A stretch of 64,000 bases of DNA, from assembly GCA_964474825.1 (NCBI GenBank), contig CAYYWQ010000001.1, positions 549,609 through 613,608 of the forward strand, in the 5' to 3' direction. The translations under genes and the position numbers were made by a program. Below the pieces are notes generated by a model that ran no database searches, was not told the DNA's origin, and worked only from the letters and a program-made list of their open reading frames with translations. How positions within the stretch are numbered: position 1 is the stretch's first letter; each line of letters begins with the position of its first letter. The stretch is from an uncultured Candidatus Saccharibacteria bacterium. Lineage in GTDB: Bacteria > Patescibacteriota > Doudnabacteria > UBA920. Positions 9,291-61,671 of the stretch are shown in pieces.

Positions 9291-9424
9291 AAAAAAACCG
9301 AACAAAAAACTTTTGTCCGGTTTCGCCATTGGCCTCTCCCGCCATAATTTTAAAAATTATGCGCGGGCCAGCTGCGATTGTAAGGCGACCAAATAATAAA
9401 TCGCAGATTGTAGGCCTACTAAAT
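9291..9424 (-). repeat. Copy 1 of a ~130-nt conserved intergenic element (terminator hairpin plus structured segment)
   Basis: ~85% identical to 13164..13297. Contains hairpin ctgcgatt[19 nt]aatcgcag and the palindrome gtaggcctac. On the minus strand it ends in a hairpin plus U-tract. Confidence 0.6.
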
Positions 9425-9435
9425 TTAGTTAAATT

Positions 9436-11685
9436 TTAAAGTAACTTTACTACTTCCAATGTGCTGCTTTGAGGAAAAGGAACCTCTTCTTTTTTAGGAT
9501 ACTTTATTTCCATCCACTCCGGGAAATCTTCGGCGCTCATAGGTTTGGCTATAAGGAAACCTTGCGCGGCGTCGCAGCCTAAACTTTGCAAAAAAACCAT
9601 TTGCTGCCCTTCTTCCACCCCTTCGGCCGTAACCTGTAAATTCAAAGTTTGGGCCATGGCAATAATAGTTTTGGTAATGCTGGTGTCAGGCGCGCTGGTT
9701 ATGCAGTGTCTGACAAAAGATTTGTCTATTTTTAAACCGTGAATGGGAAAACGTTTTAAATAATTGAGCGAAGAATAGCCGGTGCCAAAGTCGTCTATTG
9801 TAATTTGCACGCCTAAATTTTTTAATGCTTTTAAGTTAACCCGGGTTAGCTCCAAATCCCCCATTGCCAAACTTTCCGTAATTTCCATTTCCAGGCAATT
9901 GGCTTCCAGGCCGGTTTCCGCTAAAGTGTTTGCTACTTCGGCCACAAATTCCGGTTCGGAAAATTGCTGCGCGGAAACATTTACCGCTATACGGAATTTA
10001 GGCAGTCCCATGTCTTGCCAAACTTTAGCTTGTATACAGGCCTGCCTTAAAACAATTTTGTCCAGCTGGGCAATTAGCCCTGTTTCTTCGGCTAAAGAAA
10101 TAAATTCACTGGGAAGCAAAAGCCCCTTTTCCGGATGCTGCCAACGCGCCAGAGCTTCTAGAGCAATAATCTTATTTCTTTTTAAGCTAATAATAGGCTG
10201 GTAGTGGACTGTAATTTGGTTTAAGAATAAGGCTTCGCGGAATTCGTTCTCAAGGGTAAACCTTTCAGCCTGATGCAAGCCATGGAGGGAAGAGTCATAC
10301 AGGCTTAAGCGGTTGCGGCCGTTCTCCTTGGCCCTGTACAAAGCAACGTCCGCGTTCCTTTTAAGGCCGGACAAATCTAGTCCGTCGTTGGGGTATATGG
10401 CAATGCCAATGCTCACTGTAGGGTGTATGGTATGCTCTTCCACTTTTACCGGTAAACTTACGGCCCGGAGTATTTTTTCCGCGGCCACAACCACGTCTTT
10501 ACTGGAACGGATGTCGTTAATTAAAATTAAAAATTCATCTCCGCCAAACCTGCAGGCCACGTCTTCACCCCTAATGCTTGTTACCAACCTGCTGGCAATA
10601 ACTTTAAGCAGGGAATCTCCCGCGACATGACCGAGACGGTCGTTAACGTTTTTAAAACGGTCCATGTCCAAGAACATTATGGCAATTTGGCGATTGTTGC
10701 GCTTGGCTTGTTCCAATGCCTGGTCAAAACGAATGTGGAATTCCTTCCTGTTGGGTAAACCCGTTAGGGAATCATGCAAAGCTTGGTGGGTTATAGTCCT
10801 TTCCGCTTCCTTGCGTTCAGTAATGTCACGGATATTGGCAATAATTCCGTTTACGCTCGGGTCGTCCAACTTATTTACCGCGCTTGCTTCCAGCCAGCGC
10901 CAGGAACCATTACTGTGCCTATAACGAGCCTCTACGGTCATTGCTTTGTTGGGCTGCACAGCGGTTTGAAGCATGTGATTCTGGATTTTTTCTACGTCAT
11001 CAGAATGCATAAAATCCACCAAATTACGTCCTAACAAATCACCTACCGCATGCCCAGCCATACGGGTTATTGAACCGCTAATGTCCGTAATACTTCCGTT
11101 CGCGTCCAGCAGGGCGATAACATCGTAACTGTTTTCTATCATGGACCTAAAACGCAGTTTCTGGTTTTCCGATTCCAGCCTGGCTTCCTGTTCCCCCATT
11201 CTTAACTGATTAATTGTAATAGCCTGGGCCGCGGCATTCCCCAAAGCTATGGACAGGCCCTGCTCCTCTTCGGAAAAATTATGGGCATCTTTATAACAAA
11301 TAACTAAGTTCCCATAAATACTATTTTTATAACAAATCGGGATAATAACATAACTTTTCATGTAAGGGCTAACGTCATACCCTTCCTCGTAGTCTTCCTT
11401 TTTTACAACTTCCACAAAAAGTGGCTCCTGTTTTTTTTGGACCAAATAATTCCCTCCGCGTTCCCGGGGAAAATTGGGGTCATAAGGAACAGTAGGGCTT
11501 TTATAAACTAACTCAAAGCCTTGGCCAAAGGGTTTAACCCACCAGGCAAAGCCAAAGTCGGCTTCTAAAATTGCCAAACCGGTGTCCATAAACTTTTGGA
11601 TAATAGTTTCTTTCTCAGCGACATTGAAAGATTCCAAAATTGTATGGTTAAGCAAAGTTATTTTTTTTGAAATTGATTCACTCAT
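9436..11685 (-). CDS. GAF-PAS-GGDEF-EAL protein (diguanylate cyclase/phosphodiesterase)
   Basis: 749 aa. RFGGDEF(LIL) GGDEF motif, EALARW EAL motif, and PAS/GAF-like N-terminal regions. Confidence 0.85.
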   Translation of the reverse strand: MSESISKKITLLNHTILESFNVAEKETIIQKFMDTGLAILEADFGFAWWVKPFGQGFELVYKSPTVPYDPNFPRERGGNYLVQKKQEPLFVEVVKKEDYEEGYDVSPYMKSYVIIPICYKNSIYGNLVICYKDAHNFSEEEQGLSIALGNAAAQAITINQLRMGEQEARLESENQKLRFRSMIENSYDVIALLDANGSITDISGSITRMAGHAVGDLLGRNLVDFMHSDDVEKIQNHMLQTAVQPNKAMTVEARYRHSNGSWRWLEASAVNKLDDPSVNGIIANIRDITERKEAERTITHQALHDSLTGLPNRKEFHIRFDQALEQAKRNNRQIAIMFLDMDRFKNVNDRLGHVAGDSLLKVIASRLVTSIRGEDVACRFGGDEFLILINDIRSSKDVVVAAEKILRAVSLPVKVEEHTIHPTVSIGIAIYPNDGLDLSGLKRNADVALYRAKENGRNRLSLYDSSLHGLHQAERFTLENEFREALFLNQITVHYQPIISLKRNKIIALEALARWQHPEKGLLLPSEFISLAEETGLIAQLDKIVLRQACIQAKVWQDMGLPKFRIAVNVSAQQFSEPEFVAEVANTLAETGLEANCLEMEITESLAMGDLELTRVNLKALKNLGVQITIDDFGTGYSSLNYLKRFPIHGLKIDKSFVRHCITSAPDTSITKTIIAMAQTLNLQVTAEGVEEGQQMVFLQSLGCDAAQGFLIAKPMSAEDFPEWMEIKYPKKEEVPFPQSSTLEVVKLL

Positions 11686-13163: not shown

Positions 13164-13297
13164 CAAAAAACCGGCCCAAAATAATTTGTCCGGTTTCGCC
13201 ACTGGCCTCGCCCGTCATAATTTTTAAAAATTATTGACGAACCTTGCTGTGATTATAAGGCGACCAAATAATAAATCACAGATTGCAGGCCTACTAA
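13164..13297 (-). repeat. Copy 2 of the ~130-nt conserved intergenic element
   Basis: Aligns with 9291..9424. The hairpin arm ctgTgatt…aatcAcag carries a compensatory change relative to copy 1 (ctgCgatt…aatcGcag). Confidence 0.6.
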
Positions 13298-13433
13298 ATA
13301 TATGAAATTGTACTCACCTTAAAATTTTATACAATCATTACTGTCTTGTCAACAGAAAAACTTTCCTTCATTTAAGCGAAGAGAGGTAATTTATCCACAC
13401 CAATAAAATTTTTGCTTCGTTCGGGGCACACTG

Positions 13434-15806
13434 TTATTTTAAGCGCGCATCGCTTGCCGTCATAACTGAAAGCTTAGCCATAGCTAAATCATAACTGTTT
13501 GCTTTAACCAGGAAACTTGCCTGTCCGCCATTGCTTAAAAAAGTATTCCAGTCCGGAACCGGTATAAGGCCTTCCGGGGTTAAGAAGTAAACGGCTTTTC
13601 CTGAAAGCAGCCAGCTGCCTCGCGGGTGAGCTCCGTTTGCGGTTACCACAACTTTCCCTGAAAGAGCCAAACCTGAATTGGAAACAACAGTAAGGTTCGC
13701 AAACTTAAAACCAAGCCCTAAAAATGCGGCCGCGTTAGCAAATGGTGTTTTGGTGTTTTTATATACCAAAGCTATGGTTCCGTTTTCATTTATTAATTGT
13801 CCGTTAACATAGCTTCCTGTTGTTGCCACAGGGGTAGGTGTGGGCGTGGGAACAGCTGTTGGTGTGGGAGTTGGCGTAGGGCTCGCACTAGAGGAGTTTA
13901 CTGTTACGTTCAAAGTGGCGCAGGAGCTTCCACCGGTTTGGCAAATACTCACACTGGCGTTACCTACTGTTATACCGGTTAAACTAAGCTGAGACCCGCT
14001 TAAATTTAAAGTTAGCGCGCTGGGATTTGTAATACCCGAAATATAATAGGTGCCGCTGCCTCCGCTAATAGAAATAGCCTGAGTTTGGTTTAAACCCAAG
14101 GCTGGACTGTTGTTGCTAAAAGTAATAGTACCGGTCCCGGCCGCTGCGCTGGCAACAGTAATAGACATAACGCCACAAACTGAAGAATTATTATTTTGGC
14201 AAACCGTAACACTGGAAGTCCCGGCGTTCAGCCCTGTCACGTAAAGGGAATTAGACTGCAAAGAAACCGCGGCCGCGGAAGGGTTGGAATTATTTGAAAT
14301 ATAATAACTGCCACTGCCGCCAGTTATGGAAACTGTCTGGTTTTGATTTAAGGCAACATTCACGTTACTTGGGCTAAAGGTAAGTCCCCCACCAGCGCCG
14401 TTAACAGTAACATAAAGCGTACCGCAAACCGTGCTGGAAGTCTGGCAAACCGTAATAGTGCTGCTGCCTACATTTTGTCCGACCAAATAAAGAGAACTGC
14501 CGCTTAAGCTCAAGCTGACAATGCTAGCGCTGGTGTTATTTGAAATAGTGTAGGTGTTAACTCCATTGGTGGAATAAATAGCTATGCTCTGGCTTTGACC
14601 AACGGTCATAACCGGATTTTGCAAACTAAAACTAATGCCGCCGGTAGTGGTGGTGCCGCTTGAGCCGACCTGCACGAACAAATAAACACAGCCCGAAGTT
14701 GAACCAGCCGGGCAAATGGTCAAAGTGCTGGATCCGGCCGCAACAGCGTAAACTGTTACCGTCTGGCCGGTCTGCCCGCTAACGTAAGAACTAACACTTG
14801 CCGAAACAACCGCTGAGTTACTATTGTTTGTAATACTTAAAGCCGCGGTGCTGTTGTTAATTGTTGCGGTACCTGTATTGCCCGCAGTTAAAACCAAACT
14901 GGAAGGGCTAATGGTTAATCCGTTCTGGCCATTGCTGCCCACCGTTACAGTTACAGTACCGCAATAGCTGGAGCCGGTTTGGCAAATTGACAGGGTGGCA
15001 TTCCCTGGAGTACCTCCCGAAAAATATAAAGTGGAACCCGAAATGCTGGGACTAGACACAATATTGGAATTGGAATTACTGGAAATATAATAAGCCGAAG
15101 AATTGCTATTGCTCGGACTGTAAATGGTAATATTGGAACTTTGTCCTGCAATAACAACGGGGTTGGCGTTACTAAAATTCAAGGTTGTGGAACTCCCGCC
15201 GTTGACCGTTACAAGAATATTTCCGCACTGGGTAGCAGACACTGTTGAGCATACCGTTAAGGTTGTGCTGCCCGTAGACTGGCCGGTAATAATAACAGAT
15301 GCCCCGCTAACAAAAACATTGGCAACCGAAGCATTACTGTTGCTTGTTACGGAAACGTTGCCGCCACTGGAAGGAGAAGCTACCACTGTCGCGCTATTGG
15401 GGCTTGTTATGGACACGCTTGTCTGGCTCAAAGTTAAAGTTCCGCTTACACACCCGCCGGTGCAGCTGCCCGGAGGAATTTGGACTGTGGGCGACTGTAG
15501 TCCTCCTATTATTACGTAAAGCAATAGCGGATTGCTGCTGCCGTCAAAACTAACGGTTTGCGTGGAAGTAAAATTGCCGTTTGTATCGGTATTACCTAAA
15601 CTATTTGAACTCCCTGTAAAAGAGGATGAGCTCTGCCTTTGGTATAAATAAACCGGGGTATTAGCGTTAGCATTGTTAATATTCAAGGTTACCGAATTGC
15701 CGCTGGATGTCGCGTACAAACTGGGAGTACCGGCCAACGCAGTCCCGGCCAGGCTGGCAAAAATTAAAACCAAACACAACCCAAACAGCAAAAGTTTTTG
15801 TTTCAT
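13434..15806 (-). CDS. Large secreted S/T/N-rich protein with repeated Ig-like (Big-type) modules, PT linker and C-terminal domain
   Basis: Signal peptide MKQKLLLFGLCLVLIFASLAGTALAG. About 8 repeats of ~85 aa, each with two Cys (…LT[IV]CQTGSS.CGT..VTV), then PTPTPTPTAVPTPTPTP and a ~130-aa C-terminal domain. Confidence 0.75.
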   Translation of the reverse strand: MKQKLLLFGLCLVLIFASLAGTALAGTPSLYATSSGNSVTLNINNANANTPVYLYQRQSSSSFTGSSNSLGNTDTNGNFTSTQTVSFDGSSNPLLLYVIIGGLQSPTVQIPPGSCTGGCVSGTLTLSQTSVSITSPNSATVVASPSSGGNVSVTSNSNASVANVFVSGASVIITGQSTGSTTLTVCSTVSATQCGNILVTVNGGSSTTLNFSNANPVVIAGQSSNITIYSPSNSNSSAYYISSNSNSNIVSSPSISGSTLYFSGGTPGNATLSICQTGSSYCGTVTVTVGSNGQNGLTISPSSLVLTAGNTGTATINNSTAALSITNNSNSAVVSASVSSYVSGQTGQTVTVYAVAAGSSTLTICPAGSTSGCVYLFVQVGSSGTTTTGGISFSLQNPVMTVGQSQSIAIYSTNGVNTYTISNNTSASIVSLSLSGSSLYLVGQNVGSSTITVCQTSSTVCGTLYVTVNGAGGGLTFSPSNVNVALNQNQTVSITGGSGSYYISNNSNPSAAAVSLQSNSLYVTGLNAGTSSVTVCQNNNSSVCGVMSITVASAAAGTGTITFSNNSPALGLNQTQAISISGGSGTYYISGITNPSALTLNLSGSQLSLTGITVGNASVSICQTGGSSCATLNVTVNSSSASPTPTPTPTAVPTPTPTPVATTGSYVNGQLINENGTIALVYKNTKTPFANAAAFLGLGFKFANLTVVSNSGLALSGKVVVTANGAHPRGSWLLSGKAVYFLTPEGLIPVPDWNTFLSNGGQASFLVKANSYDLAMAKLSVMTASDARLK

Positions 15807-20346: not shown

Positions 20347-21276
20347 TTACAATTTTATTACTGCCCTCAGTTTTGCCGGCTTGGATCTGGAGTTGCTTGC
20401 CTGTTCAGCTTCAGATGCCGAGACCAGTTTTTTTGTTAAAATTTTTGCTTTTGGGTTTTTGCCGCAAATACATTGCGGGAAATCCAGCGGGCACACACAC
20501 CCTTTAGTTAATCCTACAAAAAACTGCTTAACCATCCTGTCCTCAAGTGAATGAAAGCTTACTATTGCCAATCTGCCGCCCGGAGCCAGTATGTCAAACG
20601 CTTTAGGCAAAAACTCCTCTAAGCTTTGTAGTTCCTGGTTAACTTCTATGCGTAATGCCTGGAAAATTCTTCTGGCGTGGTCATCTGCCTTATGTTTAAT
20701 TGGCTTTGGCAGGGCCTCCTGAATTAACTGATATAGATCTGTGGTGTATTTTATTTCTATTCTCTTTTCTCTATTCCCTATTATCTTCCTTGCTATTTGC
20801 CTGCTAAACTTTTCCTCTCCGTAATCTTCAAAAACTTTTGCTAACCTTTGTTCATCGTAACTGCTTAAAATAAATTTGGCGTCTTCGTTATGCGATTTGT
20901 CATACCGCATGTCCAGCAGTTCTTTTTTTTGGAAACTCATTCCCCTGTTTTCCAGTTCATAAGAAGAAAACCCCAAGTCCGCAACTATACCGCTAATATT
21001 TTCAAATTTGTGATGCGTAACTATTTTATCTATCTGCGAAAAATTGCCGTTCTGTAAGATTAAAGATTTAGGATTTAAGATTAAAGATCTGACATTATCT
21101 ATCGCATCCTGATCTAAATCTATTGCCAATACTTTCCCGTTCGGCTTAATTTTGTCCAATATAGCCGCAGTGTATCCGCCGCCGCCTAAGGTGGCGTCTA
21201 CGAAATTCTGATTGGGACCAGGACTAAGTAACCCAATAACCTCATTAAGTAAAACTGGAATGTGTTCATAAGTCAT
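20347..21276 (-). CDS. rsmH: 16S rRNA (cytosine1402-N4)-methyltransferase
   Basis: …VDATLGGGGY… SAM motif and MraW family features, located after mraZ. Confidence 0.9.
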   Translation of the reverse strand: MTYEHIPVLLNEVIGLLSPGPNQNFVDATLGGGGYTAAILDKIKPNGKVLAIDLDQDAIDNVRSLILNPKSLILQNGNFSQIDKIVTHHKFENISGIVADLGFSSYELENRGMSFQKKELLDMRYDKSHNEDAKFILSSYDEQRLAKVFEDYGEEKFSRQIARKIIGNREKRIEIKYTTDLYQLIQEALPKPIKHKADDHARRIFQALRIEVNQELQSLEEFLPKAFDILAPGGRLAIVSFHSLEDRMVKQFFVGLTKGCVCPLDFPQCICGKNPKAKILTKKLVSASEAEQASNSRSKPAKLRAVIKL

Positions 21277-22044: not shown

Positions 22045-22944
22045 TTAACCCCCCAGTCCGGCGAGCAGTTTTGCGGCTTGCCGGGCCTTCTCCAGTTCTC
22101 CGTCGAGCCTTTGATTCTCCGTCTTGAGCGAAGAGATAGCCGTCTGGTTAGCAGCTCTCTCGTCTTTGATCGCCTTAACAGCGGCCGGGGCCTTCTCCAC
22201 TAACTGCTGGAGCAGGCTAAGAAACTCGGCAACCGCCGGTAATTCAACGACATCCGTGGCAACAAACGCCGGCTTCCTGGGCCCGGCGACTTTCTTGCCG
22301 CGCAACTTCCGCAAATGCTGCTCAACGTTCGCCCTTCTTGCCTCCGGAAAACCATTGGCGTGGGCGGCGCTAAGAAGCCACTCGACTTCATCCCTGACCA
22401 CAGGACAATTAGCATAGGCGTTGGCCCGGATGAATTCGGGCAGTTTCCAGGCAATACCCTGCAGTGGATACTTCACAGAGCGCGCCCCGGGATTCGGCTG
22501 CGGAGGATCGGGTGGAGGGGGCGGCGGTTCCGGGTTCGGTTTCAAACCCGATCCGTTACCTGGCGGCGACCCGCCAACGGGCGGGCGCACCACCGCACTG
22601 AGTCGTTCCCTCAGCCTCTGTTGGAGTTTGCCCTGGTCGAAAACCTCATAGGCCAAAATCCGACTCTGGTTATCCTTCATCATCTGTTTTAAGACCACCG
22701 TTTTGTCCTTGGGGATTTCCCGCGGATTGAAAATGACGACCTTGGCCTGTATCAAATTGTGATTGTTAACGGCAATCTCACTCGCCGAAACCTGCAGCAC
22801 CCGAGGGTCGTGCAAGAGGGCAACATTTTCTTGAGCAAAACTAGCTGCCACAGCGCCAATAACCGCAACGCTATGCTTTTCCACTGACGAACTTTCCATA
22901 CCGACCTTTTCATATGCGGATTTAGGAGCATAGATTAACATCAT
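22045..22944 (-). CDS. Hypothetical protein, strongly GC-rich outlier, with a Pro-rich linker
   Basis: 299 aa; by eye the ORF is ~60% GC within a ~40% GC background. Contains PPPPPPDPPQPNP. No recognisable domains. Confidence 0.5.
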   Translation of the reverse strand: MMLIYAPKSAYEKVGMESSSVEKHSVAVIGAVAASFAQENVALLHDPRVLQVSASEIAVNNHNLIQAKVVIFNPREIPKDKTVVLKQMMKDNQSRILAYEVFDQGKLQQRLRERLSAVVRPPVGGSPPGNGSGLKPNPEPPPPPPDPPQPNPGARSVKYPLQGIAWKLPEFIRANAYANCPVVRDEVEWLLSAAHANGFPEARRANVEQHLRKLRGKKVAGPRKPAFVATDVVELPAVAEFLSLLQQLVEKAPAAVKAIKDERAANQTAISSLKTENQRLDGELEKARQAAKLLAGLGG

Positions 22945-27117: not shown

Positions 27118-28491
27118 TTACAACTCTTTCATTCTCCCAAAACCCACACTGTCGCGAAATACCGAGCCCGCCTTAAACATTTCCGCGCGCATTAGGGTGA
27201 ATTCGCCATATTTGTTGTTAATAACATCTAACGCTCCCACTAAACGCCTTTGCTGTTCCACGTCCCCAAACAAACTTAACTGTTTAACATAAGGTCTAAC
27301 TCCGGCCACGGTTACGCCCACAAGTTTAATTTCCCTGCCGACAGACGCGCGCAAAGGTTTACTAATTAACCGCGAGCTTTCCAAAAAAATCTCCCGGCCG
27401 TCCTGCACAAAATATCCCAACTTCTTACTGTCGCCAAAACCTTCGTAATTTTTGTCACGGCAGTAACAGCTTATAATATTCCCCATTAAATTTTTGCGTC
27501 TAAGCCTGCGCCCCACCATTTCGCAAAGTTTGTAGAGCACCGGCATAAAAAATTCCTGTTTGCGGAACTCCTGAGGCAAAGTATACATATGCCCAACCGA
27601 TTTAATTTCGTCTTCATTGCGCACGCCCGACTTCCACGAAGTTTCCAACTGTCCCAAGCTGTGTAAATGATGCCCGGTAACCGCGCCAAACCGCGAAACC
27701 AACCAGCTTTCCGGGTAATCCCGCAGTTCCCTTAAAGTTTTAATGCCCAGGCGATTTAAGTTCTTCTCCTGCCTATGGCCAATACCGGGGATGTCGGTAA
27801 GTTGAAGGCGGTTATACAAATCGGTTTTATAAATCCTCAGGATATTATTATTGTCACCCCGACTGAGCCGGAGTGCATCCGACGGCGAACGGAAGGATCC
27901 CTTAACAACTGACGAGTTGTCTAATTTAAGGGATTCCTCGGCTGCACTCGGAATGACAACAACCAGCCCATCCGGCTTCTTTAAATCCGAAGCAATTTTT
28001 GCCAATGTTTTATTTTCCGCAATACCAACACTACACCTTAGCCAATCCCCAACCTCGGTCTTAAATCTTTTTTTTATCTCGAGCGCAATACTAACAGCTT
28101 CTTCAAATGGGTCACTGTCCACTGTGCACTGATCACTGAGCACTTTTTTCACATTACACGCCTTAGTCAAATCCAAAAAACATTCGTCTATGCTATATTT
28201 TTCCACGTGGTCTGTATAATCTCCAACCACTTTTAAAAACCTCCGTGTGTAAAACCGGTAAGCTTCAGCCCGGGTGTGGGTTAAAATAATTTTGGGGTAA
28301 AGTTTTTTAGCTTCCCAAACAGGCGTGCCGGTTTTTATGCCCCATTTTTTCGCCTCAACGCTGGCGGCAATAATAATTCCTCCCAAATGCTCGCAAACTC
28401 CCACAGGCAAACCCCGCCACTGTGGATGGTCCTGCTGCTCCACAGAAGCGAAATACGAATTCATGTCGAGGTGAACAATAATATTTTGCAT
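27118..28491 (-). CDS. dinB: DNA polymerase IV (Y-family) carrying an in-frame insert
   Basis: MQNIIVHLDMNSYFASVEQ… Y-family catalytic core. 457 aa is longer than usual, and the extra ~35 aa map to the palindromic element at 27853..27957. Confidence 0.85.
   Translation of the reverse strand: MQNIIVHLDMNSYFASVEQQDHPQWRGLPVGVCEHLGGIIIAASVEAKKWGIKTGTPVWEAKKLYPKIILTHTRAEAYRFYTRRFLKVVGDYTDHVEKYSIDECFLDLTKACNVKKVLSDQCTVDSDPFEEAVSIALEIKKRFKTEVGDWLRCSVGIAENKTLAKIASDLKKPDGLVVVIPSAAEESLKLDNSSVVKGSFRSPSDALRLSRGDNNNILRIYKTDLYNRLQLTDIPGIGHRQEKNLNRLGIKTLRELRDYPESWLVSRFGAVTGHHLHSLGQLETSWKSGVRNEDEIKSVGHMYTLPQEFRKQEFFMPVLYKLCEMVGRRLRRKNLMGNIISCYCRDKNYEGFGDSKKLGYFVQDGREIFLESSRLISKPLRASVGREIKLVGVTVAGVRPYVKQLSLFGDVEQQRRLVGALDVINNKYGEFTLMRAEMFKAGSVFRDSVGFGRMKEL
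27853..27957. mobile_element. Palindromic MITE-like element, copy A, in-frame inside dinB
   Basis: gtcaccccgac…gagtgcatccga…ggatccctta | taagggattcc…cggctgcactcggaatgac, with terminal inverted repeats gtcaYYccga/tcggaatgac. Homologous copies at 35814..35896 and 52505..52572. Confidence 0.7.
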
Positions 28492-28722
28492 AAACTATTC
28501 TCTATTCGCTAATCACTATTCCCTATTCTAATAGTATACGATTGTTCACCTTTGAACAACCCGAGTTTTCCACAATTAAAAAACCGAGCGCCGAGTAGGA
28601 ATAAAATCCTTTCCCGACGCCCGTCGATTTGCGTAAAACTCCTCCGTTTCTGGCTCCCCCGCGCATGGAAGCCGATATTATACTCCCGTAAAGGACTTAT
28701 GCGCGCTAAGTCCTTGTCCCTA

Positions 28723-29736
28723 TTAGTGGGGACGGTCGACCAACATCAACAGCAGAGCCTTTTGGGCGTGCAGGCGATTGCAGGCCTGCAGCTTTACTAT
28801 TGAGCGCTTGCTGTCGATCACACTGTTGACCACTTCCTTGCCCCGATGGGCGGGAAGGCAGTGGCCAAAAACAGCATCAGGCGCAGCGTGGGCGAACAGC
28901 GCGTCGTTAACCTGATACGGAAAAAAGTCGCTGTTCCGTTGTTCGGTCTCGCTCTCGTTACCCATGCTCACCCAAGTATCCGTGTAAACCACTTGGGCTC
29001 CGGTGACCGCTCGGACAGGGTCGTCCATCAGCACCACGTCACCGCCATTGACAGCCGCCAAGTCGAGGGCGTTCTCCACCAAATCCTGCGACGGCCTATA
29101 TTTGTCGGGGCCAGTCCAGCGAAACTCCATGCCCAACCGGACTGCGTTGAGCATTAAGCTATTGCAAACGTTATTGCCATCGCCAACGAAAGTCAACACC
29201 AGGCCATTCAACTTATTCCCAAAAACTTCCTGCAGGCTCTGCATGTCTCCCAAGGCCTGGCAAGGGTGATACATGCCGCTCAGCGCGTTAATGACAGGCA
29301 CTCCGGCGTGAGTGGCCAAATCCTCAACCGTTGACTGTTTGTAAGTTCTGGCTGCAATAACCTGAACCCACTGGCCGAGATTTGACGCGACGTCCTTAAT
29401 TGCCTCCCGCTCCCCCAAAAGTCCGGTAGGAGGCAAGACGCAATCGCCGCCCAGTTGCTTGATTGCGAGCTGGAACGTGCACGTCGTCCTCAAAGAATCT
29501 TTCTCCGTTAACCAGGCCAAGTAACAGTCACTTAGGCTGGTTCGGAAATCCTGAGGACTCTTCTTGACTCTTGCGGCCAAGTCAAGAAGTTCGCGTAATT
29601 CTTCCGTGACAACATCCAGGTCCGAGCGAAAGTGCCCGGATTCGATCTTGTCAAAATTGGTTGTCGCATTACTCAACAGTGATGACGCCAATTCCTTCTC
29701 CTTTTTTATTTTCCATTCCCAAGCACCATAAAGCAA
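28723..29736 (-). CDS. argF: Ornithine carbamoyltransferase
   Basis: SLRTTCTF, HPCQALGDM and HCLPAHRGKEV motifs, with C-terminal …NRLHAQKALL. The start is uncertain because it overlaps the upstream gene by 31 nt. Confidence 0.85.
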   Translation of the reverse strand: MLYGAWEWKIKKEKELASSLLSNATTNFDKIESGHFRSDLDVVTEELRELLDLAARVKKSPQDFRTSLSDCYLAWLTEKDSLRTTCTFQLAIKQLGGDCVLPPTGLLGEREAIKDVASNLGQWVQVIAARTYKQSTVEDLATHAGVPVINALSGMYHPCQALGDMQSLQEVFGNKLNGLVLTFVGDGNNVCNSLMLNAVRLGMEFRWTGPDKYRPSQDLVENALDLAAVNGGDVVLMDDPVRAVTGAQVVYTDTWVSMGNESETEQRNSDFFPYQVNDALFAHAAPDAVFGHCLPAHRGKEVVNSVIDSKRSIVKLQACNRLHAQKALLLMLVDRPH

Positions 29737-31942: not shown

Positions 31943-32962
31943 TTATCGTGCGGACAACATACTCTTTTTATAGCTGTCTAGGTTATCCAGTGCCACGCCT
32001 GTGCCTTTAGCTACGCATAACAGGGGCTGTTCTGCCACAAAGCAGGGCACGCCAAGGCTTTGGGAAATGTAGTGGTCCAAATTTCTTAAGAGAGCGCTGC
32101 CCCCTGTCATTACCATGCCTTTGTCTATAATGTCGGAAGCCAGTTCCGGTGGCGTGTCCTGGAGAACGGTTTTTACGGCCCGGACAATTTCGTGGAGTTC
32201 GTCCTGAATAGCTTCCACCACCTCGTTGGTGGACACTGTTACGGTTTTAGGCAAACCAGTAACCATGTCTCGTCCTTTAACTTCCATTATTTCTTCTTCC
32301 GGCATGGCGAGCGCGCTGCCAATTGTGATTTTAATTTCTTCGGCCGTACGGTCCCCAATTGCAATACTGTGTTTCTTTCGGACAAAATCTATTATTGCCT
32401 GGTCAAAACGGTTTCCCGCAACGCGCACAGAAGTGGAATTCACAATACCGCCGAGCGAAAGCACCGCCACGTCTGTTGTACCACCTCCAATGTCTATAAT
32501 TAAATTTCCGGAAGCAGAGGCAATAGGAATACCCGCGCCAATGGCCGCGGCAACAGTTTCTTTAATTACATAAGCTGCTTTGGCTCCGGCGGCCTGGGCC
32601 GCGTCTACCACGGCGCGCCGTTCAGTAGACGTTATGCCGCCGGGCACAGATATCATTACTTCAGGACGAAAAAACCTAATATTACCCAAAGCTTTGTTTA
32701 TAAAATAACGGAGCATGGCTTCTGTTACTCGGTAGTCGGCAATTACGCCGTCTTTCATTGGCCTGCTGGCAACAATGGTTTCCGGCGTGCGGCCTAGCAT
32801 GTCTTTGGCTTCCTGGCCCACGGCTAAAACCCGGTTGTCGTTCAAAGAAATAGCAACAACCGTTGGCTCATTTATAATTATTCCGCGTTTGGGCAAATAG
32901 ACCAAAGTGTTGGCAGTACCTAAGTCTATACCTATCTTATTTTCAAACATAGCTTCAATCAC
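31943..32962 (-). CDS. mreB: Rod-shape-determining protein MreB
   Basis: IGIDLGTANTLVY…, actin-like ATPase motifs throughout. Confidence 0.9.
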   Translation of the reverse strand: MIEAMFENKIGIDLGTANTLVYLPKRGIIINEPTVVAISLNDNRVLAVGQEAKDMLGRTPETIVASRPMKDGVIADYRVTEAMLRYFINKALGNIRFFRPEVMISVPGGITSTERRAVVDAAQAAGAKAAYVIKETVAAAIGAGIPIASASGNLIIDIGGGTTDVAVLSLGGIVNSTSVRVAGNRFDQAIIDFVRKKHSIAIGDRTAEEIKITIGSALAMPEEEIMEVKGRDMVTGLPKTVTVSTNEVVEAIQDELHEIVRAVKTVLQDTPPELASDIIDKGMVMTGGSALLRNLDHYISQSLGVPCFVAEQPLLCVAKGTGVALDNLDSYKKSMLSAR

Positions 32963-34748: not shown

Positions 34749-36587
34749 TTAATATTTTATTTCAATAATTCTTAGTTTCAAATTTTTTCTGCCATTCCAA
34801 CTGTCTTCTATTAACTCCGCCGCAACCTCTACAGTATCCCCTACTTTTAAACTTTTTTCAAGAAAGCCTTGGTTAAAGGCAATGCTGTCGATGCTCACTG
34901 CGCCTTTTTGGAATTTTAATTGCAGATGCTGCTGCGTTGCACCCACGGTGCGCAGGCTGGTTATTTTTAAATTGGAAATAAAAAATTTAGGACGAAAATT
35001 TCCAACACCAAAGGGTTCGAAGTTAGCTAATAGCTGGTAGGTAGTAGCTTGTAGGTCAGATTCTCCTAATTCAGCTTCAAGATGCAAAACCGGAGACAAA
35101 TCTTCTTCCGAAAGATTCTTGTCCGCATACTCTAGGACCTTCATGTAAAACTTTTCAAAATCTTCAGTCTTTAAAGTAAGCCCTGCTGCTTGCTTGTGGC
35201 CGCCAAAGCGAACTAAATGTTCTCCTGCATATTTTAAAGCTTCCACTACATTAAATTCGCCCACTGTTCTGGCAGAACCAGTGGCTTCATTTTCTTCCTG
35301 AGAAAGCACAATTGCAGGCTTGCCAAAAGCATCGGAAATTCGGCCGGCAACCAAACCAACTATGCCTTTTGGCCAGTCTTCACCCATGAGGACTAAAACT
35401 TTTCTGTCGCTAATAAGTTCTGCCGCGCCCTTAGCCTCGCTCATAACCCGCTCAGTTAACTTCTGTCTGCGGCTGTTAATTTCTTCTAAAGCCACAGCTT
35501 TTTGCTGGGCACTGACCGGGTCTTTTTCCATTAAGAGATGGAGTGCGACGTTTGCATGCTCAAGCCTTCCGGCGGCGTTTAAGCGCGGCGCTACCACAAA
35601 ACCCAAAGTATAAGTATCGGCCGGCTTTCGGTTAAAATCTACACCCGCGGAATTCATTAAAGCCCGCAGCCCCACCCAGCGAGTTTTTTGCAAAACTTTA
35701 AGCCCGTATTTTACCAGTATGCGGTTTTCTCCCAAAAGAGAATGACAGTCCGCTACCGTGCCAATAGCTACTAAATCTAGTAGCCATTTCTCGTAACCTT
35801 CGATGTATTTTCTGTCATCCCGACCGACTCTGAGTGCATCCGAAGAGGAGCGGAGGGATCCCTCTTCTACTGAGTTTAAGGGATTCCTCGGCTCGGCTGC
35901 ACTCGCTCGGAATGACAAACATTTGATCACTTTTTCTTTTTGTGACAAAATCGCGCAAGCGAGTTTAAACGCCACCCCCACCCCTGTTATTTCTGAATAT
36001 GGATAATTATCGCTAGGATTTTTTGGATTAATAAGCGCGTAAGAATTCGGCACTTCCCCAATAATTTCGTGGTGGTCTGTTATTATAAAATCAATATTAT
36101 TTTTTTCACAAAATTCAGCCGCGTCCAGGGAATTAGTTCCGCAGTCTACCGTTATGATTATCTTTGATCCTTCATCTTTAATCTTTAACAGCGCTTCCAT
36201 ATTCACGCCATACCCTTCCGTAAACCTGTCAGGAATATAAGACATTACTTCCACTCCCAAATACCTAAAAGTTTGCTGGAGCACTGCGTTAGCTGTTACC
36301 GCGTCTGCGTCGTAGTCGCCGTAGATACATATTTTTTCGCCCCCTTCGATTGCCAACCAAATCCTGTCCACTGCCTTTTGCATATCCTTAAATAAAAAAG
36401 GGTCGTGCAACTTTTCGTACGCTGTGTCCAAAAACTCTTCTACCTCTTTTTTTTCTGTAAATCCCCGGTTATACAACAACTGCTGAACAAGCTCAGGAAA
36501 AGCTGATAATTTTTCCGCTTCAGCCTGCGGAATTTCTGGTTTTAACTTCCAAACTTTTTGCATATAAGCTATTTTAGCAGCAAGCAA
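34749..36587 (-). CDS. recJ: Single-stranded-DNA-specific exonuclease RecJ carrying an in-frame insert
   Basis: DHH (…IYGDYDADAVT…, …DHH…) and DHHA1 motifs. The segment …NSVEEGSLRSSSDALRVGRDD… is encoded by the palindromic element 35814..35896. Confidence 0.85.
   Translation of the reverse strand: MLAAKIAYMQKVWKLKPEIPQAEAEKLSAFPELVQQLLYNRGFTEKKEVEEFLDTAYEKLHDPFLFKDMQKAVDRIWLAIEGGEKICIYGDYDADAVTANAVLQQTFRYLGVEVMSYIPDRFTEGYGVNMEALLKIKDEGSKIIITVDCGTNSLDAAEFCEKNNIDFIITDHHEIIGEVPNSYALINPKNPSDNYPYSEITGVGVAFKLACAILSQKEKVIKCLSFRASAAEPRNPLNSVEEGSLRSSSDALRVGRDDRKYIEGYEKWLLDLVAIGTVADCHSLLGENRILVKYGLKVLQKTRWVGLRALMNSAGVDFNRKPADTYTLGFVVAPRLNAAGRLEHANVALHLLMEKDPVSAQQKAVALEEINSRRQKLTERVMSEAKGAAELISDRKVLVLMGEDWPKGIVGLVAGRISDAFGKPAIVLSQEENEATGSARTVGEFNVVEALKYAGEHLVRFGGHKQAAGLTLKTEDFEKFYMKVLEYADKNLSEEDLSPVLHLEAELGESDLQATTYQLLANFEPFGVGNFRPKFFISNLKITSLRTVGATQQHLQLKFQKGAVSIDSIAFNQGFLEKSLKVGDTVEVAAELIEDSWNGRKNLKLRIIEIKY
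35814..35896. mobile_element. Palindromic MITE-like element, copy B, in-frame inside recJ
   Basis: gtcatcccgac…gagtgcatccga…ggatccct…taagggattcctcgg…ctgcactcg…ggaatgac, the same family as 27853..27957. Confidence 0.7.
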
Positions 36588-40001: not shown

Positions 40002-40088
40002 TTAGCTTTAATTTTTGTTTCTGCGTTAGCTGGTAGTTAGTAGCTTGTAGGTGGTAGCCAGCAAAAATGCCTGGCTACTGACTACTCC

Positions 40089-41342
40089 CTACTTACTACC
40101 GACTAGCAACTCAATCTCCATTAACCTATTATATTTACAAACCCTCTCTCCTCTTGTGGGCCCAACTTTAATCCATTTGCTTCCAACAGCAACTGCTAAG
40201 TCCACCAAAAAGGTGTCATTAGTTTCGCCGCCGCCACGGTGTGATGGGATAGTTATCATGTTGTGTTTATTTGCCAGCAAACAACACTCAACGGTTTCCG
40301 TTACTGTCCCGGCCTGGTTAAGTTTAATTAAAATTGCATTTGCAGCTTTTTGGTCAATTGCTTTTTGCCAAAGCTTTACATTAGTCACTGTTAAATCATC
40401 TGCCACAACGACAGCGGAAGATTTGCTCATTAAAAGGGGCCAATGTTCCCAATCAAATTCCGAAAGCATGTCTTCCCATGCCACTATGGGATATTTTTGT
40501 AGCCATGGCAAAAACATTTCAATAACTTCCCCTGAACTTAAAACCTTATTTTCTATAGATAGAGTATATTTGCCATCTTTGTAAAATTCAGAAGCCGCGG
40601 CGTCTATGTATATGCCTGCGTCTTCGCCGGGTTTGTACCCAGCGGCTGTAATAGCTTGGGTAATAAGCTCCAAAGGCAACTCGTTATTGCCAATACCTTC
40701 CGGCGCGAACGCTCCTTCGTTTCCCACATTAGTAGAAAACTTTTTTTCTTTCAAAATCTTCTTTAAAGCTTTATAAACCTCTTCCATCATACGAACATTT
40801 TCCGCGGCAGATTGTTCTTTAACCACTGCCAAAATGTATTCCTGTAAATCTGTTGAATTGTCGGCATGTTTGCCTCCTTCAATAAATACTCCTAAAGGCT
40901 TAGGTAATTTTATAGAAGATGATGGAATATTATAAGCTTTCTGTAACCATTCATAAAGTTCCAGCCCCTCATCTGCCGCTGCTGCCCGGGCCACTGCCAT
41001 AGACACTCCTAGAATTGCATTAGCGCCCCAATTCCCTTTATTTTCTGTGCCGTCGCCCTTTATCATCAACTCGTCTATTTCTCTTAAATTTGAAGCGTTT
41101 TTGCCCAAAAGCATTGGCGCTATAACGTTGTTAACATTTGCAACAGCCTTTAACATTCCTTTTCCGTTGTATCGGGTCTTGTCGCCGTCTAACATTACAA
41201 AAGCCTCTTTGCTTCCGGCAGAAGCACCATAAGAAACAGACGCAATTCCAACTGCACCGGAATCTAAAGTTACTTTAACCTCGACACTAGGTTCTCCCCC
41301 GCTGGCCAAAATTTCCCTTGCCTGAATTTTTTTGATTGTCAT
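40089..41342 (-). CDS. eno: Enolase
   Basis: …IQAREILASGGEPSVEV… and …SHRGGGETNDTF… (SHRSGETED-like). Confidence 0.9.
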   Translation of the reverse strand: MTIKKIQAREILASGGEPSVEVKVTLDSGAVGIASVSYGASAGSKEAFVMLDGDKTRYNGKGMLKAVANVNNVIAPMLLGKNASNLREIDELMIKGDGTENKGNWGANAILGVSMAVARAAAADEGLELYEWLQKAYNIPSSSIKLPKPLGVFIEGGKHADNSTDLQEYILAVVKEQSAAENVRMMEEVYKALKKILKEKKFSTNVGNEGAFAPEGIGNNELPLELITQAITAAGYKPGEDAGIYIDAAASEFYKDGKYTLSIENKVLSSGEVIEMFLPWLQKYPIVAWEDMLSEFDWEHWPLLMSKSSAVVVADDLTVTNVKLWQKAIDQKAANAILIKLNQAGTVTETVECCLLANKHNMITIPSHRGGGETNDTFLVDLAVAVGSKWIKVGPTRGERVCKYNRLMEIELLVGSK

Positions 41343-52504: not shown

Positions 52505-52572
52505 TTTGTCATTCCGAGTGCATCCGAGGAATCCCTTAAGAGATCCTTCGCAACGCTCAGGACGACATGTTA
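52505..52572. mobile_element. Degenerate copy C of the palindromic MITE-like element (intergenic, tpiA-rpiB)
   Basis: gtcattccgagtgcatccgaggaatcccttaag… matches the arms of copies A and B. The right arm is decayed. Confidence 0.55.
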
Positions 52573-60093: not shown

Positions 60094-61671
60094 TTACTCT
60101 ATAAGTTCACCGCCAAAAACTTGGAGTGCGTCGCTTAAATTTACAGTAACTTTTTCCTCAACTGCCGCGGCCGAGGTTATTACCCTGGTTTTTAAGGCCA
60201 ATTTTTTTCCGCTTACCTTCTCAAGAACTTGCCTAATTAATTGCTGGTTTTTTTGGTTGTCTAAATTCTGTTTGTGGAAAGGAAATTTTACTCCAACTAC
60301 TACGACGCCGTTTTCCACGCCTTCCAAAGCGCAAGTCCTAATTAAATTCGCAACGGGACCATTTAATTTTTTTATACCCGCAATAAGGTTTGGCCAAAAA
60401 ACCTGCACCTCTTCAAATGTTATTGTTTCGGCTGACAAACTCTCATCGGCCGTTCCCATTTCCACTGGCTCCTCTTTTTTTTCTGACTGATACTCAGCTT
60501 GCTCTGGCTGATTATTAACTGTCACCACAGGCTGTTTAACTGGTTTCTGCTGATTGGCCCCGACGCTTTGGTCAGGGCTCCGGCCTTGCGTCGGAGCTGA
60601 CTTCCGCTGCGCCGCTTCCAAGGCGGCCAAAAGCAACGGTATGTCCGCACGGACTGAAATAGAAAGATCTTTGTAAGATTTTAAAAATAACCTTGTAACA
60701 AAAATTAATTCCTGCGGGCCCGCTAAAGAGGCTTGCTGTTTAATTTCATCTTCGTGGTCTTTGGCAGAATTTTCCAGTTGACCGTTTGTTACCTGGTAAA
60801 TTAAAACCTTTCTTAAATACTCCAAAAAATCGCGGTTAAAAATGGCGAAGTCTGTCCCTTTTTCCAAAAGACTTTCAAAAAACTGTGGTATTTCGGAGAG
60901 ACTGCCGGTTAAAATTAAATCCAAAAGTTTATGGCACAAACTAAAATCCGTAATCCCTAAAAGCTGCTGGACTTCTTCCAAGCTGGCATCTTCACCCAGA
61001 GTAATAACTTTATCCAAAAGACTCAAAGCGTCACGTCCGCCACCTTCCGCATTTTCCGCAATTAATTTTAAAACTGATGCCGGAAGTTTAAGCTTTTCCC
61101 CTTTAAGCGCCGCCTCCAGCATTTCCATAATTTCTTCTGTATTAAAACGCTTAAAGTCAAAACGCTGGGTGCGGGAGACTATTGTGGCCGGCACTTTGTT
61201 AATTTCAGTTGTGGCCAAAATAAAAATTGCGTGCTTGGGCGGCTCTTCCAAAGTTTTAAGCAAAGCATTAAAGGCACCCTTACTAAGCATGTGTACTTCG
61301 TCGATAATAAAAACTTTATATTTTCCTAAAGACGGGGAAAATTTTACATGATCGATGAGGTCGCGAATATTGTCCACACCTGTATTGGAAGCCGCGTCAA
61401 TTTCAACTAAATCCAAAAACTGCCCAGCTTCAATTTGTTTACAAATGGCGCAAGAACCGCACGGCTCGCCATCTTTTATGTTCTGACAATTAACGGCCTT
61501 AGCCAAAATTCTCGCAACTGATGTTTTACCAATTCCGCGACTGCCTGTGAATAAATAGGCATGGGCAACAGACCCGGCCGCAACCTGGTTTTTTAAAGTC
61601 TGGATAATGTATTTTTGTCCCAAAACTTCCGAGAAAATTTGGGGTCTGTACTTACGATACAAAACTGCCAT
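60094..61671 (-). CDS. dnaX: DNA polymerase III subunit gamma/tau
   Basis: MAVLYRKYRPQIFSEVLGQ…GSRGIGKTSVARILA…CGSCAICK… AAA+ clamp-loader motifs. Confidence 0.9.
   Translation of the reverse strand: MAVLYRKYRPQIFSEVLGQKYIIQTLKNQVAAGSVAHAYLFTGSRGIGKTSVARILAKAVNCQNIKDGEPCGSCAICKQIEAGQFLDLVEIDAASNTGVDNIRDLIDHVKFSPSLGKYKVFIIDEVHMLSKGAFNALLKTLEEPPKHAIFILATTEINKVPATIVSRTQRFDFKRFNTEEIMEMLEAALKGEKLKLPASVLKLIAENAEGGGRDALSLLDKVITLGEDASLEEVQQLLGITDFSLCHKLLDLILTGSLSEIPQFFESLLEKGTDFAIFNRDFLEYLRKVLIYQVTNGQLENSAKDHEDEIKQQASLAGPQELIFVTRLFLKSYKDLSISVRADIPLLLAALEAAQRKSAPTQGRSPDQSVGANQQKPVKQPVVTVNNQPEQAEYQSEKKEEPVEMGTADESLSAETITFEEVQVFWPNLIAGIKKLNGPVANLIRTCALEGVENGVVVVGVKFPFHKQNLDNQKNQQLIRQVLEKVSGKKLALKTRVITSAAAVEEKVTVNLSDALQVFGGELIE

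Follow-up and report, generated by a model that had tools for sequence, protein, structure and literature searches.

What is a long, stably folding palindrome doing in the reading frame of a DNA-repair gene? The question is raised by recJ in a stretch of 64,000 nucleotides from an uncultured Candidatus Saccharibacteria bacterium of the GTDB lineage Doudnabacteria (contig CAYYWQ010000001.1, positions 549,609 to 613,608; the whole stretch is called the window here), in which the gene contains an imperfect palindrome that we call element B. We give a probability of about 0.65 to the reading of element B as a palindromic, non-autonomous repeat of the kind known as REP (repetitive extragenic palindrome), REPIN (REP doublet forming a hairpin) or RPE (Rickettsia palindromic element), carried as a tolerated in-frame passenger of a RecJ loop.

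An earlier note on this DNA had placed a palindrome at 35814-35896. Folding supported that the palindrome is real: the 116 nt around element B folded as RNA at −46.7 kcal/mol (z = −3.87), a value equalled by none of 200 shuffled sequences, and the element with short flanks folded as DNA at −23.2 kcal/mol (z = −3.2). In a sliding 110-nt scan, element B was the second most stable fold of the 64-kb window (−46.2 vs a mean of −20.8, standard deviation 7.3). The start proposed in the note was sound, but its end came about 21 nt too early and truncated one arm; the bounds set by the terminal inverted repeats TGTCATCCCGA ... TCGGAATGACA are 35813-35917 (105 bp). Across this interval the plus strand reads TGTCATCCCGACCGA ... 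TCGCTCGGAATGACA, with a G+C content of 57% vs 43% for the window. The sequence was 100% identical in two contigs that are independent assemblies of two sequencing runs, and element B is therefore not an assembly artefact. Other stable, G+C-rich segments (22516-22625, 32536-32645, 28801-28910, and 60556-60665) turned out to be plain coding sequence with no REP termini.

Each arm of the palindrome follows the general layout TGTC - ATNNN - loop - N'N'N'AT - CCC, with the tags facing outward (Table 1). The two arms can form either two local hairpins or a single long hairpin. Both strands of five long copies of the repeat folded at −41 to −50 kcal/mol; in a G-U strand-asymmetry test for a role at the RNA level, the sense strand was more stable by up to 7 kcal/mol in four of the five and marginally less stable in the fifth. 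Searches against Rfam 15 at gathering and permissive thresholds returned no family match at element B, only spurious microRNA-hairpin hits (e.g., 24 bits vs a gathering score of 97 bits), and across the whole window the gathering score was reached solely by a tRNA elsewhere.

Table 1 Coordinates (window positions) and make-up of the features and RecJ-loop families discussed in the text
Feature	Position	Strand	Description
recJ	34749..36587	−	612 residues; DHH, DHHA1, and RecJ_OB domains; all catalytic motifs intact; host of element B
Element B	35813..35917	−	105-bp imperfect palindrome; two inverted TGTC-tagged REP-like units (heterodimer); in frame in recJ
Element B, 5' unit (gene sense)	35880..35917	−	TGTC tag, stem ATTCC/GGAAT, 24-nt loop GAGCGAGTGCAGCCGAGCCGAG, CCC tail
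Element B, central spacer	35863..35879	−	17 nt between the units; loop of the long hairpin; variable among orthologous copies
Element B, 3' unit (gene sense)	35813..35862	read on +	TGTC tag, stem ATCCC/GGGAT, 33-nt loop, CCC tail
Copy A	27852..27958	−	in frame in dinB (27118-28491), between IMS palm domain and HhH thumb
Copy C	52507..52567	+	61-bp heterodimer; intergenic, tpiA/rpiB; orientation opposite to A and B
RecJ-loop family T1			TGTC-tagged element type of element B
RecJ-loop family T2			SSRNF...NSGMT peptide; TGTCAT termini
RecJ-loop family			PSPLP...KGEG type
RecJ-loop family			ADLHADPLRG type
RecJ-loop family			GTAG-tagged VGASFSRP...GRLKAA type (L006)
RecJ-loop, further CGTC-type dimers			found in L129 and L150

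Element B is not alone in the window. The copy in dinB (copy A) shares its architecture, its orientation and about 71% of its sequence, in agreement with the earlier assignment of both to one family. A further copy that the note had missed (copy C) lies between genes and combines a TGTCATTCCGAG...GGAATCCC unit with an inverted GTCGTCCTGAG...AGGATCTC unit; one of these (34 nt) is 97% complementary to a unit of copy A, and the other belongs to a different subtype. In these 64 kb of a 1.21-Mb genome the family is thus represented by three dimers, two intragenic and one intergenic, all inverted with outward tags and all ending in TGTC...GACA; loci of relatives contain further copies. Copies A and B do have like orientations relative to their genes, as had been pointed out, but this is weak evidence: the match is uninformative because 61 of the 68 non-overlapping open reading frames (ORFs) of at least 90 residues lie on the minus strand of the window, a very strong bias, and because copy C is oriented the opposite way. 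Copies were counted by specific matches only, as a generic pattern (GTC followed by a 5-bp stem starting with AT or AC) gave 11 hits vs a mean of 11.8 in shuffled sequence, i.e., not above chance. The longest rpiB ORF (MTNNTMIY...) takes its ATG (52510-52512) from the TGTCAT terminus of copy C; the true rpiB start is probably the downstream ATG (MIYIASDHAG).

Where in RecJ does the insertion sit? It had been placed between the DHH/DHHA1 catalytic region and the OB fold, which does not agree with the Pfam bounds: the last residue of the DHH match is 217 (position 109 of the 125 in the profile), followed by DHHA1 at 396-487 and RecJ_OB at 504-608, so that the element lies near the C-terminal end of the DHH domain. 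The GVGVAFKLA helix precedes the insert and the conserved EKWLLDLVAIGTVAD segment follows it, which places it within the DHH domain, upstream of the LDLVAIGTVAD motif. The corresponding peptide comprises the 35 residues L224-D258 (LSFRASAAEPRNPLNSVEEGSLRSSSDALRVGRDD). The solved RecJ structure 8y30_A aligns to residues 14-217 and 263-607 of our protein and has no counterpart of 218-262. Structure prediction had been proposed for RecJ with and without the segment. The AlphaFold2 model of RecJ with the insert, built on a 35-sequence alignment, reached a mean predicted local distance difference test score (pLDDT) of 86.5 and a predicted template modelling score (pTM) of 0.86. In this model, residues 228-257 have a pLDDT below 50 and no secondary structure and are flanked by helices at 217-223 and 265-279. 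The model of an insert-free natural relative (P0005) contains the same helices, joined by a 7-residue loop, and no low-confidence stretch. The models thus depict a low-confidence loop whose adjoining helices match those of the insert-free protein, and they support the location of element B in a surface loop that tolerates insertions, close to where the DHH domain ends. The expectation of a linker in which an insertion is tolerable fits this picture of a variable loop that is absent in most relatives and in the solved RecJ.

To place the loop among its relatives, we used the 120 closest RecJ homologues (57-73% identity), of which those with names belong to Candidatus Doudnabacteria or Patescibacteria. 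This element type was absent from 116 of them, and the four carriers include the RecJ of the window itself. About 43 of the 120 have a 14-residue loop at the site, and over 71 loci of the Candidate Phyla Radiation (CPR) the distance between the flanking motifs ranges from 26 to 77 residues. The comparison with recJ of relatives, which the note had proposed, therefore did not uncover a conserved native linker. The idea that the segment is such a linker, or an artefact of assembly, has the open reading frame in its favour and nothing more. It is refuted by 116 of 120 close homologues and the solved RecJ structures, all of which lack the segment, by related DNA in dinB and in an intergenic spacer, and by the agreement of the two assemblies; we give it practically no chance.

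The next question is whether the peptide or the nucleic acid has been conserved. Copies A and B had been said to encode similar peptides. This applies to the right arm, which is read in a common frame (GS[LF]RS.SDALR..R.D), but not to the left arm, which is read in different frames, as VIPSAAEESLKL in dinB vs LSFRASAAEPRNPLN in recJ. Among DinB and RecJ orthologues the left arm occurs in all three frames (VIPS / SFRA / CHSE, RHSE), and two or three of the six frames of each copy are free of stops. Of the two options that had been offered, an orientation and frame preference or selection for a translatable frame, a preference for one frame therefore does not exist, and what is needed is just an open frame. 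A profile of the encoded peptide (HMMER) found no protein family among 1.84 billion representative proteins, the 3 hits being low-complexity junk, and a profile of 43 residues yielded 2 word candidates and no hit. With these searches empty, we rejected the peptide as a protein module or domain.

The nucleotide sequence behaves differently. The cores TGTCATTCCGAG, CGAGGAATCCCTTA, AAGGGATCCCTCC, and TCGGTCGGGATGACA are nearly invariant in the eight copies examined. In the four RecJ orthologues that carry the element, the third codon position is invariant in 12 of 15 left-arm codons (80%) vs 30 of 145 flanking codons (21%; Fisher's exact test, p = 7e-6), and 15 of the final 16 nt of the element are invariant. 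Synonymous sites adjoining the element are near saturation. Together, the frame-independent left arm, the empty peptide profile, and the invariance of third positions indicate that the element evolves unlike coding sequence and that the DNA (or RNA), and not the peptide, is conserved.

The very stable hairpin within a coding region could also mean that the segment never reaches the mature protein and is taken out beforehand, as an intron-like RNA, an intein, or by translational bypass. GC-rich palindromic bypass elements exist in yeast mitochondria. All intragenic copies examined, however, are multiples of three and stop-free in the frame of their host gene, which would be needless if they were excised. 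In addition, there is no Rfam family match, a segment of 35 residues without intein motifs is far too short for an intein, and we know of no ligation system for the excision of a hairpin from bacterial mRNA. We therefore consider removal very improbable.

The nucleotide-level conservation raises the alternative that an old insertion has been co-opted, with the cores in recJ and dinB under purifying selection, the hairpin acting in cis, and the copies being orthologous. The hairpin might work in the mRNA, where it could retard translation or be a substrate for a double-strand RNase, or it might be a DNA hairpin or a protein-binding site through which the expression or stability of repair genes is tuned. 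Several features agree with such a history, namely that the four RecJ copies have a common left junction (22 residues past GVGVAFK) and a common phase, that copies group by gene site and not by genome, that third positions are far more constant in the element than in its flanks, that the cores are identical despite different reading frames, and that an excess of intragenic REPs in DNA-repair genes has been published. On the other hand, carriers are scattered among non-carriers, and the nearest relatives of each RecJ with a T1 element are in another loop state, so that a required function would need many losses or replacements. A syntenic relative (L209) has the element in dinB and none in recJ. 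The same cores are kept in intergenic copies and in distant phyla, which assigns the conservation to the repeat class and not to recJ. The pairs of the long hairpin are invariant among 8 copies and hence give no covariation signal, and the two strands fold about equally well. Taken together, we regard co-option as unlikely.

The scatter of carriers becomes apparent when the states of the RecJ loop are compared. The neighbour-joining tree of the 120 RecJ sequences was star-like and did not separate gains from losses, so pairwise identities were used instead. By this measure, the four carriers are not mutually closest relatives. The nearest relatives of the window RecJ (P0001; 77% and 73% identity outside the loop) are in other loop states, and the nearest of all (L006, P0002; 77%) has a GTAG-tagged REP dimer at the same place (GTAGGGGCGAGCTTTAGCCGCCC ... 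GGGCGCCTGAAGGCGGCC, with a peptide of the VGASFSRP...GRLKAA type). Two further carriers, P0011 and P0024, belong to a clade at about 80% identity whose remaining members have PSPLP-type repeats or heptamers. The high similarity among the carriers ends exactly at the element boundaries. Across lineages, the position is filled by at least five unrelated palindrome families (Table 1). The short basal loops consist of tandem heptanucleotide repeats with a lineage-specific unit that is read in all three frames, e.g., (AAATCCG)x4, (GAAAAGA)x4, (ATTCAAG)x5, and (AGTGAAA)x4; such arrays were seen in the RecJ loop of L130, L131, L152, L159, and L007. Two histories fit these data, a single old insertion per site that was often lost or replaced while its cores stayed constant, or repeated entry at one and the same nucleotide; plain neutral junk would lead one to expect neither history.

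The DinB loop around copy A is similarly variable, with 29-99 residues between its flanking motifs among orthologues, heptamer-derived peptides in many of them and this element type in at least ten. Both the RecJ loop and its DinB counterpart are hot spots, and depending on the lineage they contain several REP families or heptanucleotide repeats. One dinB, that of P0142 (L207), has at about 560-607 an additional TGTC unit, which belongs to another subtype (TGTCATTGCGAGGAACCCC...GCAATCC) and lies some 180 nt 5' of the T1 element. REP-like in-frame inserts also occur at three more sites of RecJ, after residues 27, 317, and 560 (the last within the OB fold), in homologues P0011, P0015, P0058, P0090, P0093, P0094, and P0120 and at L131 3122-3201, with peptides such as LPFRRHS...SAQDDAG and VIARSASDEAI... 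One gene can thus take repeated hits.

This pattern could arise from recurrent site-specific insertion, i.e., from a preferred target in the RecJ and DinB loops at which several REP families enter at the same nucleotide. Heptanucleotide arrays or a replication-dependent single-stranded hairpin site would be possible targets. Such entry would be a special case of the reading that we prefer, with a stronger claim on targeting. The unrelated palindrome families at one RecJ position and the like behaviour of the DinB loop argue for this, as do T1 carriers that are not each other's nearest relatives and a similarity that halts at the element ends. However, a permissive loop combined with selection against insertions elsewhere gives the same picture. 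There is no conserved target motif or duplication at the junctions, inserts are found at the three further RecJ sites, and the site-specific signatures borne by the RecJ and DinB copies fit descent better than repeated sampling of a genome-wide pool. Site-specific entry thus appears quite unlikely to us. We see an equally slim chance that the RecJ and DinB loops of Doudnabacteria-like CPR are true hot spots of integration or turnover, at which palindromes of several REP-type families and lineage-specific heptanucleotide arrays would be placed again and again at one nucleotide, with cores under nucleotide-level selection; if they were, these cores would be functional cis elements or would serve the targeted diversification of DNA-repair proteins, and would not be passive junk.

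How could a passenger repeat be maintained in such a loop? In the reading that we prefer, a non-autonomous repeat of the REP, REPIN or RPE kind, element B consists of two inverted units, each made up of a (T/C)GTC tag, a stem of 5 bp whose first bases are AT, a loop, and a CC(C) tail, and the whole can fold into one long hairpin. Read-through transcription and translation would add a disordered loop of 35 residues to a RecJ that is still functional, as RPEs do in their Rickettsia host proteins. Selection would act as a filter, and the survivors would be insertions that are stop-free, a multiple of three in length and situated in tolerant loops. The nucleotide core of the units, rather than the peptide, would be what is kept. 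By analogy with other repeats, the cores may be recognised as single-strand hairpins by an enzyme or process that copies or maintains them, for which a transposase of the HUH/Y1 type that acts in trans or gene conversion between copies would be candidates. For CGTC-tagged REPs, no enzyme of this sort is known.

Several points weigh against this interpretation. The relatives include no close-range pair of a filled and an empty site, and the insertion event itself was not seen. No target-site duplication flanks any of the eight copies whose junctions were read, and no transposase or REP-associated tyrosine transposase (RAYT) turned up among the listed ORFs of the window, for which a scan for Y1_Tnp domains was not made. 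The units have a perfect stem of 5 bp and loops of 12-36 nt, compared to stems of 8-9 bp and loops of 4-5 nt in the described groups CGTC-1 to -4. Translation of the segment is presumed from its open frame. Moreover, identities among the RecJ copies of four species are 83-88%, whereas element B and copy A, which share a genome, are only 71% identical. This clustering by site, combined with near-invariant cores, points to nucleotide-level constraint, concerted evolution, or site-specific re-insertion; plain neutral junk would predict neither.

Which known repeats does the element resemble? The closest are the CGTC-tagged REPs, whose tag is often TGTC, which have A-T pairs at the first two stem positions and a short CCA-like tail, and which occur chiefly as inverted dimers, often heterodimers, without a dedicated transposase (PMC3733652). 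The superfamily shares with element B the (C/T)GTC tag, the A-T/T-A first stem pairs, and inverted dimers, often of unlike units, that can fold into a large hairpin; the short, C-rich unpaired tail may be a further common feature. Its copies are likewise mostly intergenic and sometimes genic and in frame, with the intragenic ones concentrated in genes for DNA synthesis and repair (PMC3733652). The survey describing these repeats (Di Nocera, De Gregorio & Rocco 2013) is older than the CPR genomes and names five phyla (PMC3733652); the unit of element B is spread over many more, Patescibacteria included. Its loops are bounded by GAG...(C)GAG, and the different stem and loop geometry excludes it from CGTC-1 to -4. 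At most, the unit is therefore a new family with the layout of the CGTC/TGTC superfamily.

Among the members of the CGTC-tagged class are RPE-4 and RPE-6 of Rickettsia and dRS3 of Neisseria (PMC3733652). RPEs are repeats of 100-150 bp found in intergenic and coding DNA (PMC1779305). Like element B, they are palindromes of about 100 bp that lie between genes or in frame within them, at sites tolerated by the protein fold, and their host has a small genome. The host phylum and the sequence family differ, and translation has been demonstrated experimentally for RPEs while it is deduced for element B. The one link between the two is the published membership of RPE-4 and RPE-6 in the CGTC REPs. RPE termini, which we take to be GTCATCCCG.../...CGGGATGAC (PRDD/GRDD peptides), would resemble the ends of element B. 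The dRS3 repeat (CGTC-1) has nearly the same core, GTC-ATTCC...GGAAT-CC, but its GC stem is longer and its loop short, and in-frame insertions of dRS3 in coding sequence are not known. The units TGTCATTCCCGCG...GGGAATCCA of loci L129 and L143 presumably match the dRS3 form.

REPINs, which are GTAG-tagged REP doublets moved by a single-copy HUH/Y1 transposase (RAYT), are similar in that two inverted REP units and a spacer form a hairpin of about 100 nt, which persists for long and is conserved at the nucleotide level. They differ in their tag (GTAG vs TGTC) and are almost always extragenic. MITEs (miniature inverted-repeat transposable elements) such as Correia/NEMIS, ERIC, and BOX are also short, non-autonomous, co-transcribable, and hairpin-forming, and the terminal inverted repeats typical of them are present here as inverted termini of 11 bp. 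Element B is, however, a dimer of REP units and not a deleted insertion sequence; neither a target-site duplication nor a parent insertion sequence was found.

To follow the TGTC unit beyond the window, we scanned one genome per species with the pattern GTCATTCCGAG-N(3-20)-GAGGAATCCC. It was present in at least 119 stretches, and the matches listed come from Acidobacteriota, Verrucomicrobiota, Chloroflexota, Bacteroidota, Gemmatimonadota, Armatimonadota, Firmicutes (Clostridia), Proteobacteria, and, within the CPR, Uhrbacteria and Magasanikbacteria. Among these listed matches, 150 of 161 units have T or C directly before GTC; for 77 of the 161, an inverted partner whose AT-initial stem of 5 bp is perfect lies no more than 140 nt away. 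The partner stems fall into 8 covarying types, including ATTCC/GGAAT, ATCCC/GGGAT, ATGTC/GACAT, and ATCCT/AGGAT, and just 8 units lie deep within long open frames. The tail is CCC in copies A, B, and C and CCA in L129 and L143; the cross-phylum matches are uninformative on this point, as CCC was built into the search pattern. In viruses the unit is rare (16 stretches in 2.9 million viral contigs). At L099 3048-3700 and L009 6247-7141 (Dehalococcoidia chromosome OZ244885.1) the unit forms regular tandem arrays, which repeat every 80 nt and have near-identical spacers, as well as clusters of alternating orientation about 330 nt apart. These look like grouped REPs and not like CRISPR arrays.

A literature search on CPR and palindromic insertions found no earlier report of such elements in CPR genomes; searches with the terminal DNA strings returned only primer coincidences, and no newer work tying CGTC REPs to a transposase came up. 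Since intragenic palindromes of the REP/RPE kind are already known from Rickettsia, what is new here is the CPR phylum and not the kind of system. Selfish palindromes inside proteins, so far known from Rickettsia and a few other bacteria, thereby extend to the CPR, where they are tied to a short hairpin unit common to many bacterial phyla. For genome annotation, such repeats account for low-complexity inserts of 30-40 residues and for length variation in CPR proteins, as well as for spurious starts (rpiB) and spurious small ORFs (...LGMT, ...GRDD, VIPS...). Two aspects go beyond a purely neutral view, namely the frame-independent conservation of nucleotides and the recurrence of different repeats at one codon of two repair genes. 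Tests in existing metagenomes could address how REP-like repeats spread and why they prefer DNA-repair genes.

Some further repeats were recorded in the window. Heptanucleotide repeats of 4-5 copies are its commonest and longest tandem arrays (20752-20786, 21056-21088, 28113-28144, 28495-28529, 36160-36188, and 40027-40058); a change by one unit within coding sequence would shift the frame. At 40027-40105, between the genes for enolase and iPGM, lies an intergenic palindrome built of TAGNTNG heptamers. One of its arms has 25 of 26 nt in common with a C-terminal stretch of recJ (35031-35056, which encodes DLQATTYQL, within 35017-35056), a match far above chance for 64 kb. Finally, direct repeats of about 65 and about 57 nt with 85-91% identity are found 3.87 kb apart at 9292-9427 and 13165-13302, both just downstream of large ORFs on the minus strand (9436-11685 and 13434-15806, respectively); they may represent a shared 3' region of paralogous genes.

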